Shown here one piece after another: positions 1,680 through 60,416 of a stretch of 61,188 bases of DNA. Where the stretch lies: IMG/VR virus record IMGVR_UViG_3300010346_001238. The stretch is one strand, 5' to 3'. A model generated the notes under the pieces. It was not told the DNA's origin, ran no database searches, and worked only from the letters and a program-made list of their open reading frames with translations. The DNA is from an uncultured virus (IMG/VR IMGVR_UViG_3300010346_001238) (Duplodnaviria > Heunggongvirae > Uroviricota > Caudoviricetes). Position 1 is the first letter of the stretch, and each line of letters starts with the position of its first letter. The translations under genes and the position numbers were made by a program.

Positions 1680-2354
1680 ATGAAAATTAAAATTGTAACT
1701 TTAAGTGATAAAAATCGTAAAGAAATAAGTGATGTTACATTTCCAACGTTAGAAAAATTTTCTATTAATACTGGGATTGAATTAACACGACATACATCTC
1801 TTATAGATCCATCAATACATGCAAAATGGAATAAATTTTTATCTTTGAAATTGGAAATAGAAAAATATGACTGGATAATATGGATGGATTCAGATATATC
1901 AATTATAAATAAAAATTTTGATTTAAAAAATTATTTATCTACATTTGATAAAAGGACAAACTTTTTAATTTCAATGGATTGTAATGGGCCATGTACAGGG
2001 TGTTTTGCATTGAGAAATTGTGAATGGTCTTATAATTTTATAAATACTGTTCTATTTTTAAAAAATACATGTGATATTAAAGAAGTGCCCCAAAATCGCA
2101 CCGAATCTGATCAGGGATGTGTTCGGGTGTTAATAAAAAACTTTTCGAATATATCAAATTATGTGGAATATATACCAGAACATTTAATTCAAAATCCAAG
2201 AAGTGTATTTAATCCTGATGCATTTGCGATGCATTTTTGGTATGAATTAAGAGATAGAAATAGAATTATAGATTGTGCAACAGATATTGATAATGGTATA
2301 TGGACGGAAGAACAATTAAAAAGTAAACAAAAAAATACAATTGTTGTAATGTAA
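1680..2354 (+). CDS. Glycosyltransferase, GT34 (GMA12/MNN10)-like
   Basis: 'WNK...YDWIIWMDSD' (DxD), 'DCNGPCTGCFALRNCEWS', 'SDQG'. Start moved to ATG 1680, after the tRNA. Confidence 0.8.
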   Translation: MKIKIVTLSDKNRKEISDVTFPTLEKFSINTGIELTRHTSLIDPSIHAKWNKFLSLKLEIEKYDWIIWMDSDISIINKNFDLKNYLSTFDKRTNFLISMDCNGPCTGCFALRNCEWSYNFINTVLFLKNTCDIKEVPQNRTESDQGCVRVLIKNFSNISNYVEYIPEHLIQNPRSVFNPDAFAMHFWYELRDRNRIIDCATDIDNGIWTEEQLKSKQKNTIVVM

Positions 2355-2409
2355 TAAATTCTCAATATATTTATCATCGGAATCATGATATGATTTAAGA
2401 AATAAAATT

Positions 2410-2596
2410 TCTTTGACATAGCAGATAGACCGATGATTAAATACCCCATAGTGTGTGACACATGGGAATAAGCGTGGAAAAGAAGTAAATATTTAAATAT
2501 ATTGAAGACCATGACAGGTTTCTCGGCCTAAAGCGAAGATAGCGATGACTGCGAAAAGGTCTAGGTATTAACTATCATAAGTTACTATGTCAAAGA
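2410..2596 (+). ncRNA. Candidate structured non-coding RNA (~187 nt), family unknown
   Basis: Perfect 12-bp terminal helix TCTTTGACATAG/CTATGTCAAAGA with internal hairpins, no credible ORF, ending 2 nt before tRNA-Ser. Confidence 0.5.
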
Positions 2597-2598
2597 TC

Positions 2599-2687
2599 GG
2601 TGGGGTGGCTGAGTTGGTTTAAGGCACTTGTTTGGAAGACAAGCGTGCCCAAAAGCACCGTGGGTTCGAATCCCACCCCCACCGCCA
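2599..2687 (+). tRNA. tRNA-Ser(GGA)
   Basis: Acceptor GGTGGGG/CCCCACC, G73, long variable arm, anticodon loop TTGGAAG, TTCGAAT, CCA. Confidence 0.95.
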
Positions 2688-2708
2688 ATTTAGAAAGTAT
2701 ATATTATT

Positions 2709-2927
2709 ATGAAAGCAAAACGTTTAGGTGATTTACAGCGAGTTATTAATCAAAATCCGCATTGGGCGGCGTTGAAAGAATATAATCATATTCGAGTGCA
2801 ATTTCCTAATGGAAAAGAAAAACATTTATTATTTACGGATAAAGAAATTCAACGGGCTATAGACCGAGCCAATAAGAATCCGGAAGATCTGCCCAAAGTA
2901 TCATGGGTCAGAGATTTCTTTGATTGA
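2709..2927 (+). CDS. Hypothetical protein (72 aa)
   Basis: ORF fills the gap between two tRNA-Ser genes. Confidence 0.7.
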   Translation: MKAKRLGDLQRVINQNPHWAALKEYNHIRVQFPNGKEKHLLFTDKEIQRAIDRANKNPEDLPKVSWVRDFFD

Positions 2928-2933
2928 TAAACA

Positions 2934-3020
2934 GGATGGTTAACCGGGCGGGGACCCGGGGCCGACTCGAAATCGGCACGCACCTCAGAGTGTGGGGATC
3001 GAGACCTCAGCCATCCGCCA
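2934..3020 (+). tRNA. tRNA-Ser(CGA), atypical (possible 8/4 fold)
   Basis: Anticodon arm GCCGA-CTCGAAA-TCGGC, 5-bp D stem CCGGG/CCCGG, T-loop ATCGAGA, long variable arm, G73-CCA. Confidence 0.85.
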
Positions 3021-3026
3021 TTTTCA

Positions 3027-3392
3027 ATGAAAAAACAGTTAATATTTATATTTATATTTTTCTTTGTATTGATTGCAAAAACTGAAAATGTACGGTTTAA
3101 TGTACAATATGAAGGAAATACTAACGAAACTGCCGGATTTGCCATTTATTATGGCCCGGCATCTCGCCAATATACCAATCATCAAATAGTAAAAAATTCT
3201 ACTAATATCACTATCACGAATCTACCATCCAATTCTTCGTTTTATTTATCTGGACGATCTATCAGGTTTGACGGATTGGAGTCGGATTTAGGAAACGAAT
3301 TATTTATAACAACCACACCTATTATAACCAATCAATTACCAAGTGCAGTGAAAGATTTTCGGCTTTCTCACGTTTATATGAATATTTATTAA
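3027..3392 (+). CDS. Secreted fibronectin type III-like protein
   Basis: N-terminal signal peptide; 'GFAIYYGPASRQYT...ITITNL...FYLSGRS...GLESDLGNE'. Confidence 0.7.
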   Translation: MKKQLIFIFIFFFVLIAKTENVRFNVQYEGNTNETAGFAIYYGPASRQYTNHQIVKNSTNITITNLPSNSSFYLSGRSIRFDGLESDLGNELFITTTPIITNQLPSAVKDFRLSHVYMNIY

Positions 3393-4802: not shown

Positions 4803-5183
4803 ATGGTCAAGAAAAGGAAACGGGCTTCTTTAAAACTAGAAAACGAAAGATATATTGTTCCTTCATCAAATGAAGAAATGAAAACTTTCGTGGGTAAATT
4901 TAAAATAGATATGATGGAACATGTAGTTTCATCAATTAAATTTGCTGTCGAAAACAAACTCCCTATAGTCGAAGTATTTCAATTTAAAAATTCTCCCTTT
5001 GTCGTTACAATTACCGAAAAAGAATTTGATGTTAATTTACGACATATAATAAGTTATTATCGGGAGAACGAAATTTATGAGTTATGTCCACGCATAGAAC
5101 AATTACGTGAAATTATCAAACAAAAAACGAATGAAAAAGAAAGTCCAGAAAATAACGAAGGATTTAATAATTCACCCCAATGA
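4803..5183 (+). CDS. Hypothetical protein
   Basis: Start ATG 4803 chosen because it follows a TATTTATG motif; C-terminal 'E.YELC.RI' helix. Confidence 0.65.
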   Translation: MVKKRKRASLKLENERYIVPSSNEEMKTFVGKFKIDMMEHVVSSIKFAVENKLPIVEVFQFKNSPFVVTITEKEFDVNLRHIISYYRENEIYELCPRIEQLREIIKQKTNEKESPENNEGFNNSPQ

Positions 5184-47154: not shown

Positions 47155-50100
47155 ATGCAACAACAATATCAATCGCCAAATTTGAATCAAATGCGAACAC
47201 GGTCTTTTGAAGATGATGTCATGAATGTAAAGACCCAATCTCTATATGCAAGATTAAAACGTCTTTTTTCTACAGATGTTATTGTTCGTAATGTTGGTGG
47301 TAAGCAATTAAAAATTAAAGATACTGATAGTATCATGTATGCTACCGACCGCAACTCATTGCGGGATCGGTTTAATCGTATTCGATCTACTGCATATAAT
47401 GCTTATACTCGGGATTTCTCTCTGTCCTATCAGGCAGCTAGAATGGATTTATTTAGAGATTATGACTGTATAGGACCCGATACTATTATTCCTTTACCTG
47501 ATGGATCTAAACCAACTATTAAAGAATTATCCGAAAAATATAAAAATTCGCCCCAAGAAAGATTTTGGGTATTTTCATATGATCAAGAAACAAAATCTAT
47601 AAAACTTGGACGGGCATATCATCCTCGAAAGAAAAAAGGAAAACGATTAGGTTATAAAGTAACATTTGATAATGGACAACATATAATAGGAAGCTTAAAG
47701 CATCCATTTTATATGAGAGATGGAAGTGTAAAGCGTTTATTTGAATTAAGGGTAGGAGATTCGATATTGCCATTTTATCAAAGAGAATATGGATATAATA
47801 AACATGGATTTAAACGATATCGAAGATTATATAATTTTTCAAATGGATGGCAGACTGAGCATAAAATTATTGCAGAACAATTTAATGGAAAATTAAAACG
47901 AGGAGAGGTTGTTCATCATAGTGATTTTAATGGATCTAATAATAATCCGGAAAATTTATGTATAATGGATTGGAAAGAACACAAAAAATTCCACTCGGAT
48001 TATAATAAAAATGTATTATGGGGGCCGGAAAACTATGATATTCAATGTGAAAAATTAAAAACACATCCTAATTATATAAATCGTAAATTTCATGGATGGA
48101 ATGGACGGCGGGGAAATAAAAATCCTTTTTATGGAAAACCCCACACAACAGAATCTAACCAAAAAAGGTCAGTTACATTAAAAAGAATATTAAAAGATCA
48201 AGATCGAGAAGCTGAAAAAAATCCAAATTATAGAAGTGATATAACATTAGATAATGTTCAAGAAAAGGCTTTTGAATATTACAAAGAATATTCAAAAATA
48301 AATCTTAATGATTTTATTAAACATATCGGGTGCAATCATTCTACATTAACTAGGAGACTTAAAAAGGAAGGAATTAATTGGAAGTTTTTTAAGAGAAATG
48401 TAGAAACAACCCTTAATCATAAAATTATTTCAATTGAATGTGTTGGAGAAATTGATGTTTATGATGTAACCGTTGAAAAATACGCCAATTTTGCAACGGA
48501 TAGTTGTATTGTGGGAAATACGATGGATCTTGACCCCATTATATGTTCTGCCTTAGACATTTATGCGGATGAATGTTTAACGACAAATGAAGTGGGTAAT
48601 ATGATTACTGTACATTCAAATAATAATAATGTTAAACGAATATTAGAAAATTTATTTGATGAAATTCTCAATGCCCGATTTAACTTATGGAGTTGGGTAA
48701 GAAATATGTGTAAATATGGGGATTTCTATTTAAAATTGTATATAACTCCCGAATATGGAATATACATGGTAGAACCAATTTCAGCATATAACGTAGAACG
48801 CATTGAAAATTCCGATCCATATAATAAGCGATATGTAAAATTCCAAATTCGACCTACTGATACGGCTCAGGCGGAGGTATTAGAAAATTATCAAATTGCA
48901 CACTTTCGTCTAATTTCAGATAGTAATTTTCTTCCTTATGGAAAAAGTATAATAGAGGGATCTCGAAGAGTGTGGAAACAACTTTCTCTAATGGAAGATG
49001 CTATGCTTATTCATCGTATTATGCGTGCTCCGGAAAAGCGTGTATTTTATACAGATACGGGAAATTTGCCTCCTAATGAAATTGATACTCACGTACAAAA
49101 TTTGATGAATAAAATGAAAAAGGTTCCTTATATAGATGAGAATACTGGGGATTATAATTTACGATTTAACCTGCAAAATATGGTTGAAGATTATTACATT
49201 CCGGTTCGTGGGGGAGATAGTGGAACAAAAATTGATACTTTGGGTGGAATGGAATGGACTGGTACAGAAGACATTGAATATCTAAGAAATAAGCTGATGG
49301 CATCTTTAAAAATTCCAAAGGCATTTTTAGGATATGATGAAACGGTATCAGGAAAAGCAACTTTGGCGTCCGAAGATGTTAGATTTGCACGCACTATTCA
49401 AAGATTGCAACGAATTATTACGTCGGAATTAACAAAAATAGCTATTATACATCTATATGCGCAGGGATATAGAGATGAATCTTTAGTGGATTTTGAATTA
49501 GAATTAACTAATCCTTCAACTATTTTTGAAAAAGAAAAAATTGAAATTTGGTCGGACAAAGTATCGGTAGCTACTGATATGATTGAAAATAAATTTTTCT
49601 CTTATAATTGGGCCTATAAAAATATTTTTAATATGTCTGAAGACGATATTAAAGTAATACGAGAAGAAATTGCTGAAGATGCAAAACAAAGATTCCGATT
49701 TGATTCGATTGAAAATGATGGAGATGACCCCGCCAAGCCATTTAGTAAAATTGAGGGTAGTGGTGGCGGTGGAGGAGGGGGTAGTGGCGGTGGAGGAGGG
49801 GGCCTGGGTGGATTGGGCGGACTATCTGATACCGACGATTTGGAAAAATTGGCCGACGCCGAAGGTCCAGAAGATTTAGATATAGGAGATGAGGGAGAGG
49901 GGGAAGAAGAAGGTCCCGATAAAGAATCCCCACTAAAAGAATATTCCGATCCTCAAGAAAATAGAGACCAGTCAGGATTAAAAAAAGCAGAAGAATATGC
50001 ATTTGGAGAAGACCCCTTGGGGGAGCATGAAAGAGACCCCGAAGAGAAAAAATCTAGTGAGAGAAAACGGTCTAGTCCAATTTCTCATAATTTTGAGAAA

Positions 50101-50283
50101 TCTCCCTTACATCGTTTAGAAGAGAGATCCAAACCAATAGTAGATAAGGAAATGATAGGTAATTTGTCTAAATTTTTATCTAAAACGCAAAAAGAAACCA
50201 AATCCGAATTACTTGTAGAAACTAAGAAATCTTCCCCGACTGGAAGTAAATCAATGTTAGATGAAAGTAATATTATAGAATAA
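47155..50283 (+). CDS. Portal protein (T4 gp20-like) containing an intein
   Basis: 'ALDIYADEC', 'KYGDFY', 'LMEDAMLIHRIMRAPEKRVF', 'EDYYIPVRG', 'LKIPKAFL', 'DVRFARTI.RLQ'; Gly/acidic tail. Confidence 0.93.
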   Translation: MQQQYQSPNLNQMRTRSFEDDVMNVKTQSLYARLKRLFSTDVIVRNVGGKQLKIKDTDSIMYATDRNSLRDRFNRIRSTAYNAYTRDFSLSYQAARMDLFRDYDCIGPDTIIPLPDGSKPTIKELSEKYKNSPQERFWVFSYDQETKSIKLGRAYHPRKKKGKRLGYKVTFDNGQHIIGSLKHPFYMRDGSVKRLFELRVGDSILPFYQREYGYNKHGFKRYRRLYNFSNGWQTEHKIIAEQFNGKLKRGEVVHHSDFNGSNNNPENLCIMDWKEHKKFHSDYNKNVLWGPENYDIQCEKLKTHPNYINRKFHGWNGRRGNKNPFYGKPHTTESNQKRSVTLKRILKDQDREAEKNPNYRSDITLDNVQEKAFEYYKEYSKINLNDFIKHIGCNHSTLTRRLKKEGINWKFFKRNVETTLNHKIISIECVGEIDVYDVTVEKYANFATDSCIVGNTMDLDPIICSALDIYADECLTTNEVGNMITVHSNNNNVKRILENLFDEILNARFNLWSWVRNMCKYGDFYLKLYITPEYGIYMVEPISAYNVERIENSDPYNKRYVKFQIRPTDTAQAEVLENYQIAHFRLISDSNFLPYGKSIIEGSRRVWKQLSLMEDAMLIHRIMRAPEKRVFYTDTGNLPPNEIDTHVQNLMNKMKKVPYIDENTGDYNLRFNLQNMVEDYYIPVRGGDSGTKIDTLGGMEWTGTEDIEYLRNKLMASLKIPKAFLGYDETVSGKATLASEDVRFARTIQRLQRIITSELTKIAIIHLYAQGYRDESLVDFELELTNPSTIFEKEKIEIWSDKVSVATDMIENKFFSYNWAYKNIFNMSEDDIKVIREEIAEDAKQRFRFDSIENDGDDPAKPFSKIEGSGGGGGGGSGGGGGGLGGLGGLSDTDDLEKLADAEGPEDLDIGDEGEGEEEGPDKESPLKEYSDPQENRDQSGLKKAEEYAFGEDPLGEHERDPEEKKSSERKRSSPISHNFEKSPLHRLEERSKPIVDKEMIGNLSKFLSKTQKETKSELLVETKKSSPTGSKSMLDESNIIE
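47467..48519 (+). mobile_element. Intein (351 aa) with HNH endonuclease and NUMOD3 motif
   Basis: Starts 'CIGPDTII'; block B 'SLKHPF'; HNH 'VVHHSDFNGSNNNPENL'; 'NPFYGKPHT.ES'; ends 'VYDVTV..YANFA...IVGN' before Thr+1. Confidence 0.9.
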
Positions 50284-58681: not shown

Positions 58682-59878
58682 ATGAATCTAAAATGGATTG
58701 ATGCACATACAATTTACGTTACATTACATGGTTCACGGGCGTATGGTCTTGCCAATGAATTTTCGGATGTAGATGTTAAGGGAATTTGTATTCCCCCACC
58801 CGAAATAGAGTATGGATTGTTTGATCGTTTTGAGCAAGCAGAAAATTATCCAGCTATCGAATCAACATTACAACATTTAAAAAATCCTAACAATCCTAAA
58901 TTTGAAAGTTCCATATATTCATTGAGGAAATTTTTTATTTTGGCGGCAGGCGTTAATCCAAATATTATTGAATTATTGCACACTTCTCCCGAACAACATT
59001 TTATTAAAAAGCCAATAATGGAGAAGGTTTTAGAGAATCGAAATTTATTTTTATCAACTAAAGCTCGATTTACATTTTCAGGATATGCCAGTGCTCAAGC
59101 CAAAAAAATTGAGCGGCATAGAAAATGGATTGTTATGGGAGAATTAAAAAAGCCATGTCGTGCAGATTATGGTTTGCCCGAAATTTCCAAGCGAGGGGTT
59201 GGAGAAGTATTTGATTACCTTAAAAGTAAAGTGGAAAGATGGAATTTAAACCAATTTACAATGGATGAAATGCAACGGTCTGAACTTAAAGATGTCATTT
59301 GGGATTTATTGTCTAGCGTAATAAATAAAGAAGTTTCTGTTTCCAATTGGCCCGATGTTTATTCTGATGCAGCCTTTAATAATATGGCTCAGGATTTCAA
59401 TTTTTCCGATGAAGTTATTGCATATATCCAGAGGGAAAGAAAATACTTTAAAGATAAACAAACATATGAGTCATGGGTAAAATGGAAGACGGAAAGAAAT
59501 CCGGAAAGAAGAGCCTTGGAAGAAAAATGTGGATATGATTCGAAACATGCTTCCCAGTTGATCCGGCTTATGAAAATGGGAATGGAAATTATTTCTGAGG
59601 GGAAAGTAATTGTTAATCGACAAGGTATAGATGCCGATGAAATATTATTCATTAAAAATGGTGGATGGACATTTGATAAAGTAATGGAATTCAAAGAAGA
59701 AATGGATAATAAATTAGAAGCCGAATATCAGCGACATAAAAAACTTATTTCCGAGGGCAAGCCCACGCCAATTCCACAAAAAGTGAATACTACAAAAATA
59801 AATGAATTGTATAATAGTATTTACTCCGAATATTGGAGAGGATGGACTCCAGACGAATTGCACGACATTCCAATATAA
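58682..59878 (+). CDS. DNA pol beta-superfamily nucleotidyltransferase (RlaP/YcgL-like)
   Basis: 'GSRAYGL....SDVDVKG', 'NPNIIELL', 'GYA..Q', 'GYD.KHA..L.RL'. Confidence 0.85.
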   Translation: MNLKWIDAHTIYVTLHGSRAYGLANEFSDVDVKGICIPPPEIEYGLFDRFEQAENYPAIESTLQHLKNPNNPKFESSIYSLRKFFILAAGVNPNIIELLHTSPEQHFIKKPIMEKVLENRNLFLSTKARFTFSGYASAQAKKIERHRKWIVMGELKKPCRADYGLPEISKRGVGEVFDYLKSKVERWNLNQFTMDEMQRSELKDVIWDLLSSVINKEVSVSNWPDVYSDAAFNNMAQDFNFSDEVIAYIQRERKYFKDKQTYESWVKWKTERNPERRALEEKCGYDSKHASQLIRLMKMGMEIISEGKVIVNRQGIDADEILFIKNGGWTFDKVMEFKEEMDNKLEAEYQRHKKLISEGKPTPIPQKVNTTKINELYNSIYSEYWRGWTPDELHDIPI

Positions 59879-59879
59879 T

Positions 59880-60416
59880 ATGAAAATTAATATATGCAAC
59901 GATCCTGTTACAGTGCCAGAATATGCGGTACATGAGGATGGAAAAATATATGGATTTTTTGGTCCATTTAGTTTTTTAAGTAATTTTTATATACTTGAAA
60001 CGGCGGTATGTTTAGAGGGATTATATTTTCCATCGGTAGAACATGCTTTTCAAGCTGCAAAATGGCCCCCTCATTTGAGAGAACAATTTACACGGTGTAG
60101 TTCTGGCAAAGCAAAAAGATTGGGACGAAAATCACCATATTTTGATGAAGAAAAATGGAATAAAAAAAAGTTGGGACTTATGAGAGAACTGTGCTTTCAA
60201 AAGTTTACAAATGATTCAAAACTTAATAAAATGCTGTTAATGACCGAGGGATATGAACTTAAAGAGACAAATAATTGGGGAGATACATATTGGGGATGTA
60301 ATGAAGCGGGAGAGGGCGAAAATAATTTAGGGAAAATTTTAATGGATATTCGAGAAGAGTTGTTAAAGCTAGAAAAAAAGAAAAAGAAATTTTTTAAAAA
60401 TGAAACCGCCGATTAA
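59880..60416 (+). CDS. NADAR-family protein
   Basis: 'FLSNFY', 'SVEHAFQA.K', 'AKRLGR', 'KF', 'E...WGD.YWG', 'GENNLGKILM..RE'. Confidence 0.92.
   Translation: MKINICNDPVTVPEYAVHEDGKIYGFFGPFSFLSNFYILETAVCLEGLYFPSVEHAFQAAKWPPHLREQFTRCSSGKAKRLGRKSPYFDEEKWNKKKLGLMRELCFQKFTNDSKLNKMLLMTEGYELKETNNWGDTYWGCNEAGEGENNLGKILMDIREELLKLEKKKKKFFKNETAD

Follow-up and report, generated by a model that had tools for sequence, protein, structure and literature searches.

Phage tRNA clusters can hold small stable RNAs other than tRNAs. The species 1 and species 2 RNAs of phage T4 (rnaC and rnaD, entered as 'small, stable RNA' in NC_000866.4) are 139 and 119 nt long and lie within the tRNA cluster, 1-6 nt from the adjacent RNA genes, and in being small non-tRNA RNAs at such a site they are like the family described here. 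GOLLD (Rfam RF02032) and ROOL are ornate phage RNAs near tRNA islands, and their function is unknown according to the available part of PMC12286853. Among cellular RNAs, the raiA motif RNA, also of unknown function, combines a length of about 200 nt with a closing P1 and a compact pseudoknotted core (PMC12968392, available part). 6S RNA folds into a double-stranded hairpin interrupted by a central bubble (PMC9130861, likewise in part).

We analysed a window of 61,188 nt, the whole stretch of DNA of one uncultured virus record, in which a noncoding gap of 244 nt (2355-2598; about 245 nt in the first-pass annotation) precedes a tRNA-Ser gene. The element that fills most of this gap is almost certainly a real structured RNA gene. 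Sequence comparison establishes a family, with its predicted secondary structure and its genomic position; the family appears to be new and is apparently undescribed, and it belongs to one clade of very large (jumbo) uncultured phages. The features of the locus are collected in Table 1.

Table 1. Features of the RNA locus in window coordinates
Feature	Position	Strand	Remarks
Candidate promoter region	2344..2374	+	TTGTAA 2344-2349 / TATATT 2366-2371; overlaps TATTTAT 2368-2374
RNA gene	2410..2596	+	187 nt here; full-length homologues 148-187 nt; matches model R1
P1a 5' strand	2410..2421	+	pairs with 2585-2596
P1b/P1c 5' strands	2424..2431	+	GATAG with 2572-2576, ACC with 2564-2566; from relatives
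P2 bulged hairpin	2445..2466	+	near-invariant G-C and U-A pairs; U-N(2-3)-A tip
P3 arm	2473..2513	+	presumed loop-E arm with U-turn-type loop
P4/P5 module	2516..2539	+	AGG 2516-2518 with CCT 2527-2529; P5 about 2520-2525/2534-2539
P6 3' hairpin	2547..2561	+	GACT/GGTC; loop mostly C-R-W-G-A-Y
P1a 3' strand	2585..2596	+	ends 2 nt before the tRNA
tRNA-Ser(GGA)	2599..2687	+	tRNA call; downstream of the RNA in 34/38 members

The window comes from a large T4-like phage with terminase, T4-type portal, primase and PhoH genes. Its nearest record is a 67-kb fragment with an estimated completeness of 19%, and the complete relatives measure 354-365 kb. A weak lead, one atlas cluster with the phylum known for a single member, points to a host in the Verrucomicrobiota. 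The portal gene (47155-50283) is interrupted by an intein with an HNH endonuclease, and an RlaP-like nucleotidyltransferase of an RNA repair family lies beside a NADAR protein (58682-60416). The first 3 kb of the window are the end of a tRNA cluster, in which tRNA-Met(CAT) at 499-570 and tRNA-Ser(CGA) at 2934-3020 escape default settings and are called at a lower ARAGORN threshold in the identical locus L092. An endonuclease-like ORF at 683-1549, with HNH-type PHROG matches and a frame that begins inside tRNA-Ala(TGC), is probably a homing endonuclease in the tRNA cluster.

The statement of the first-pass annotation that no family could be assigned holds against Rfam: searches at gathering and E-value level, which covered window 2300-3100 and five other members, returned tRNA matches and sub-threshold chance matches only. 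Blastn against INPHARED, with the window region and the member L194 as queries, found nothing over the RNA, and a full-text literature search, mainly outside subscription journals, found no description of the family. Fremin et al. 2023 (PMC10690425) list 8,495 viral candidate RNAs of 29-151 nt from IMG/VR; two motif spellings and four sample ids had no match in the searched part of its supplements. As these candidates are at most 151 nt long, a fragment of the RNA may stand unnamed among them.

Homologues were reached through a 126-aa ORF at 4803, which served as a marker for 31 loci; nhmmer then located the element in related phages, between tRNA-Gln(CUG) and tRNA-Ser(GGA). Two other routes were abandoned: a first pattern based on the TAGACC/GGTCTA pairing gave 70 matches, four identical copies and otherwise unrelated sequences, and a 72-aa downstream ORF as synteny marker gave 12 loci, four identical and eight without the RNA. 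In a viral motif scan, 19 of 22 matches were true members carrying both helices that the pattern did not contain, and a twentieth passed the helix filter yet scored 17.5 bits. Among the metagenome motif matches listed, at least 118, 18 were true members with both non-pattern helices; the helices were missing from 100 of the 118, and 68 of these, together with six genome matches, scored below 17 bits. The model, R1, was built from 21 sequences and gives full members 89-177 bits. From the 80 matches of a looser pattern it recognised 32 at 89-172 bits, the next score being 17, and two further members found after that search brought the total to 38. Cellular counterparts were sought as well. None of 77 pattern matches in the GTDB collection had both P3 helices, and R1 under strict filters had no match in a sample of 151 genomes belonging to the same phylum as a Verrucomicrobia record, or in five other genomes.

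The family thus counts 38 distinct sequences, found only in one clade of T4-like phages of about 350 kb. Most members are 150-170 nt long; the length range in Table 1 excludes about 6 of 36 with wrongly picked closing helices (e.g. L350, L391, L407 and L102). Identity among 35 aligned members spans 36-93% (mean 53%), and the nearest relatives are 66% identical to the window copy. One 121-nt copy (L098:3511-3635) keeps P1-P3 with a mismatch in P3a and lacks the P4/P5 module and P6; it is a natural truncation or a decaying copy. The RNA is single-copy in all four carrier records searched. It is an optional, dispensable gene, because G003, a complete relative, does not have it and three fragmentary lineages lack it at the Gln-Ser junction. 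A 107-aa minus-strand ORF overlapping 2410-2512 is unsupported as a gene, with a stop-free frame of any kind in only 8 of 35 members.

The perfect 12-bp helix that had been proposed to close the element is present, and a 12-bp inverted repeat arises in only 2 of 300 dinucleotide shuffles. In the homologues the closing helices are mostly 8-12 bp long and unrelated in sequence, and in most of them the stem ends 2-6 nt from tRNA-Ser(GGA); the 2-nt distance noted for the window copy agrees with the tRNA call. P1b and P1c were derived from an alignment of the seven nearest relatives. Alignment columns 25-28/172-175 are 67% paired, and P1b is tentative given its low probability in the single-sequence fold.

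Every complementary word listed for the interior by the first-pass annotation exists in the sequence, and its pairings fared unequally in the comparison. The CCCAT/ATGGG hairpin stands as P2, and the AGG/CCT part of a further pairing is partly retained. TAGACC/GGTCTA falls, as the TAGACC site reads ATACC in relatives and pairs with GGTAT there, while GGTC pairs instead with GAC of the 3' hairpin. AATACC/GGTATT and ATGAT/ATCAT fall as well, neither being conserved in the seven closest relatives. In the predicted fold, four elements (P2, P3, P4/P5 and P6) meet at a junction that P1 closes. This fold is no rod, and the earlier impression of a branched interior is borne out by covariation.

The covariation evidence is as follows. 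In a sequence-only MAFFT alignment of 21 sequences, both partners change in 37 of the 44 proposed pairs, and 86% of cells are paired, compared with 69% in shuffled and 34-40% in slid controls. A tree-aware G-test with 60 null alignments places 11 of 12,403 pairs at E<0.05, all of them in P2 (four pairs), P3 (four), P5 (one) and P6 (two); this test is lenient because its alignment was fitted to the model. Fourteen sequences outside the model keep the helices at 86-98% (P2a 54/56, P2b 41/42, P3a 66/70, P3b 64/70, P5 60/70). The homologues therefore covary, where the first-pass annotation had named the lack of such homologues as grounds for rejecting the RNA.

P2 is 98-100% paired. P3, the most conserved element of the RNA and one overlooked in the first-pass annotation, opens with an outer helix of 5 bp (2473-2477/2509-2513), followed by a 4-nt bulge, an extended loop-E/S-turn module of (G/U)AAGUA at 2482-2487 with GAAGA at 2504-2508, and an inner helix of 5 bp (2488-2492/2499-2503). 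Its loop, UUNA(G)UU, has 6 nt in the window copy and 7 nt in 31 of 35 members. We take the arm to combine a loop E/S-turn (AGUA/GAA) with a U-turn. AAGUA and GAAGA are invariant in 35 of 35 members, partly by selection because both words stood in the search patterns; they are likewise invariant in 11 sequences found before any such pattern. The P4/P5 module has an invariant GG and C-N-N-A-A. P5 is imperfect in the window copy and 85% paired in the alignment. AGG/CCU is a candidate for a short 3-bp pseudoknot: it is complete in 21 of 35 members, with an outer pair of A-U in 22, G-C in 6 and a mismatch in 7, and it is non-significant in the tree-aware test. A competing lone pair, 2528-2533, is canonical in 28 of 35 with four pair types (E about 4). 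Conservation is concentrated at non-canonical and loop positions and the helices exchange freely, as expected of a tertiary fold.

The folding energy leaves the strand undecided, since the minus strand folds better (z = -4.4) than the plus strand (z = -2.8). We assign the plus strand because of the operon direction, promoter-like boxes upstream in homologues and a mild G-U preference (54 G-U and 31 A-C in the helices). The motif reported upstream at 2368 reads TATTTAT; the same motif of this phage occurs in 11 of 47 hand-picked ORF upstream regions. The sigma70-like pair TTGTAA/TATATT matches 9 of 12 consensus bases and is weak on its own, because a scan gives 34 such sites where 27 are expected. 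Seven of 38 homologues have a TTG..TATATT box with TATTTAT no more than 70 nt ahead of the RNA, and in the five with a correctly called stem the promoter-like box ends 7-10 nt before the closing stem. TTGACA at 2413, raised in the first-pass annotation as a possible promoter that would leave the 5' arm untranscribed, lacks a -10 partner, and the promoter scan does not report it as a -35 box. The hexamer falls within a word, TTCTTTGA, which recurs ahead of RNA genes of the cluster, in the window (2409-2417 and 2916-2924) and, in several loci, before the mini RNase P gene, and which overlaps the 5' strand of P1a in one subgroup. To our eye the word resembles rrn boxA, and it perhaps serves antitermination along the long tRNA operon.

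Besides tRNA-Ser(GGA) downstream, tRNA-Gln(CUG) lies at most 25 nt upstream in 24 of 38 members. Four of 38 keep the RNA without an adjacent tRNA-Ser(GGA), and L368 has a promoter-like box and no tRNA on either side. Considering that 7 of 38 have an upstream promoter-like box and that L368 stands without flanking tRNA, the RNA seems to behave as its own gene, borrowing tRNA processing for its ends; 5' maturation of tRNA-Ser(GGA) would set its 3' end. The four long records each have a tmRNA and 22-43 tRNA types, and all four also have a tRNA with a CUA anticodon (amber suppressor type). GOLLD is in the cluster of two of the four; GOLLD RNA and tmRNA in the relatives' tRNA cluster lie at L437:1988-2453, L474:10231-10683 and L436:13388-13791, with a tRNA-like match inside GOLLD RNA at L437:2054-2125. 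In the complete genome G008, unannotated, well-folding spacers between tRNAs (L437:1444-1686, L437:15031-15530, L438:196-522 and L438:8934-9150) may be other RNA genes.

The cluster also holds a miniature RNase P-like RNA in all four long records (Rfam RF00010, 44 bits, E 1.9e-10, below the gathering score). It lies at L092:3050-3284, some 2 kb before window position 1 in the same phage, and at L438:8569-8850, and occurs also in L093-L097, L099, L102, L107, L110, L118, L119, L447 and L485. Its P4 is compensatory, conserved regions I and V are 161-313 nt apart, and the specificity domain is replaced by a stub of GGGAG, a variable hairpin and AATACCAC. This stub may resemble the L1-stalk head of 23S rRNA.

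Public RNA data touch the locus lightly. Some sequence words were contained in 12 of 18 listed rows of RNA runs, and four runs were examined in detail. In one of the four, a single 222-nt contig covers 2461-2682 at a depth of 2.4, bridging RNA and tRNA. These data are contigs only, with the phage at trace level, and the four runs show no excess of the RNA over its neighbours; in runs X1, X7 and X2 the RNA is uncovered and the pieces are scattered like trace DNA, and the absence of cover is uninformative.

We consider that the product is probably a free RNA acting in trans. The proposal of a stable, branched phage ncRNA released by RNase P gains support as a hypothesis from the 38 covarying homologues and from the position of the stem end before the tRNA. 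In the mechanism that we tentatively favour, the RNA would bind a component of the tRNA or translation machinery via a three-dimensional surface and so help translation to run during infection, a reading that rests on genomic company and motif analogy. The RNA would share a transcript with the tRNAs or be transcribed from a promoter of its own. RNase P would free it by cutting at tRNA-Ser(GGA), together with 3' trimming of tRNA-Gln(CUG) where that is present, and the closing stem would protect the released RNA. The P2 and P3 arms, both of fixed length, could then pack with the GG/CNNAA core into a compact fold, whose surface would act in trans without base pairing. The target might be a tRNA, a protein that processes tRNA or associates with the ribosome, or a host nuclease that attacks tRNA or rRNA, with the RNA as an accessory or a decoy. 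The 5-bp stem of P3 with its 7-nt U-U-N-A loop has the dimensions of a tRNA arm. The loop is not a genuine anticodon loop: U predominates at position 37, some members have 6 or 8 nt, and Leu loops of the phage itself finish in GA, AA or GG.

Several other explanations deserve consideration. Possible, if on the whole unlikely, is a protein-binding scaffold or decoy unrelated to translation, for instance one that sequesters a regulatory protein or a defence protein of the host, or else an assembly of RNA alone like GOLLD and ROOL, which form RNA-only cages and are phage RNAs near tRNA islands (PMC12286853, available part). Optional presence would suit a counter-defence factor, and the conserved compact fold would suit a scaffold or decoy. 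However, the place in the tRNA operon is fixed in 34 of 38 members, and no co-occurring partner gene was found by presence and absence against one complete non-carrier or, for Ro60 and reverse transcriptase, in five carrier records. Of the 554 proteins of the complete carrier G008, 26 also occur in two other carriers but not in G003, which is complete and lacks the RNA; with this single complete non-carrier compared, a Pfam scan of 24 of the 26 found no RNA-binding family. Three Mom-family and three DruA-like proteins (L425-L429, G008) are common to three RNA-carrying long records and absent in G003, a pattern that probably reflects phylogeny rather than a link to the RNA.

A narrower relative of the favoured reading, which we regard as unlikely, is a tRNA-handling RNA that would dock on the tRNA elbow or CCA end through the loop-E arm, the U-turn loop and the invariant GG, and would either assist the mini RNase P or be itself catalytic. 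If true, it would be a phage-built multi-piece RNA machine for tRNA maturation. Rather less credible is a new self-cleaving or processing ribozyme that helps to cut the tRNA precursor. The RNA adjoins tRNA ends on both sides and has an invariant unpaired core with a candidate pseudoknot, and theta ribozymes beside gut-phage tRNAs are a precedent for tRNA-linked phage ribozymes (PMC10879173, in its available part). On the other hand, catalogued ribozyme models, including theta and other HDV-like ones, do not match the window or five other members at E<=10; the closing stem encloses the whole element, with no end at a cleavage site; 4 of 38 members keep the RNA although the downstream tRNA is missing, and it also persists behind its own promoter; and the clade has an RNase P-like RNA for 5' ends.

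We hold two further readings to be improbable, and to a like degree. First, the short pseudoknot, the invariant G-C and the A-rich linker look pocket-like, and G2517 is invariant though its partner column varies, which would fit a ligand-binding aptamer, a sponge or a sensor for a nucleotide signal or metabolite; yet riboswitch models are unmatched at E<=10 in the window and five members, and neither an expression platform nor a regulated ORF lies downstream. Second, the element might be a cis-acting spacer or processing signal of the tRNA operon that never becomes a free RNA, as its constant position, the boxA-like word at the RNA 5' end in one subgroup and the low-depth contig bridging RNA and tRNA would allow. 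But relatives manage with a Gln-Ser spacer of 4 or 30 nt, the interior is conserved far beyond the needs of a processing stalk, and L368 stands alone behind a promoter.

We give still less credence to a two-piece RNase P, in which the RNA would be a trans helper replacing the shrunken specificity domain of the mini RNase P RNA. The P-like RNA has its small conserved stub and variable insert where the S-domain belongs. The S-domain of RNase P RNA has about 150-160 nt, and the RNA is of that size; it lies a few hundred nt downstream of the P-like RNA in several loci (L110 and L118), and all 10 RNA-carrying lineages with loci spanning both positions also carry the P-like RNA. It stays a minority reading, because the P-like RNA occurs alone (in the complete G003 and in L096, L099/100 and L106/107) and trans complementarity was not found in 10 genomes (native pairs 20.5, cross pairs 21.1); the conserved regions of the S-domain, judged by their reference motifs, are also unrecognisable in the RNA. 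The 6S-like promoter mimic of the first-pass annotation, which would sequester host sigma70 holoenzyme, draws on the length and closing stem of the window copy and is hardly credible, since the covarying pairs define a four-armed junction that has no central bubble, most members are shorter than the window copy, and 6S models are unmatched at E<=10 in the window and five members.

Other known RNAs were considered and set aside. For a bacterial Y RNA (YrlA), Ro60/TROVE (PF05731) is in none of five carrier records (one complete), and neither ARAGORN nor Rfam calls the RNA; for a retron msr-msd or DRT ncRNA, PF00078 is in none of the same number of carrier records (one complete), and the neighbours are tRNAs. 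The RNA is not called as tmRNA, which has a separate gene in each long record. The P4 pseudoknot and conserved regions I/V of RNase P RNA are absent here and present in the other gene of the cluster. More generally, the characteristic motifs are missing for hammerhead, retron, tmRNA, SRP, RNase P, group I, T-box and anticodon-mimic readings.

Compared with the described systems, the new RNA stands apart from each. T4 rnaC has a tRNA-like GGTTCGAATCC arm, which the new family lacks, and R1 has no match at E<=1 over the T4 rnaC/rnaD region (L338). GOLLD and ROOL are far larger, and the family profile does not match the GOLLD copy in G008. The raiA motif RNA has two conserved pseudoknots and a conserved P1 (PMC12968392, available part), whereas P1 of the new family varies in sequence, and no Rfam match is seen. 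6S RNA is alike in size and closing stem, but it is rod-shaped and the new RNA is branched. The T-box stem I and other loop-E modules set AGUA/GAA on a helix beside an A-rich bulge, as in the new RNA. In contrast to the T-box, there is no specifier codon on the 3' strand, where the 5-bp helix covaries right up to GAAGA; the 3' loop strand is the invariant GAAGA itself, and there is no antiterminator, regulated ORF or Rfam match. The family offers natural present and absent relatives, one truncated copy and one stand-alone copy, and it may reveal a new RNA fold or activity. The phages that carry it have genes for tmRNA, dozens of tRNAs and a reduced RNase P RNA as well, and work on its structure and its partners could explain how jumbo phages remodel the set of translation RNAs in their host. 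To the stable RNAs of phage tRNA clusters, T4 species 1 and 2, GOLLD and ROOL, it adds a small, well-covarying and experimentally tractable family.
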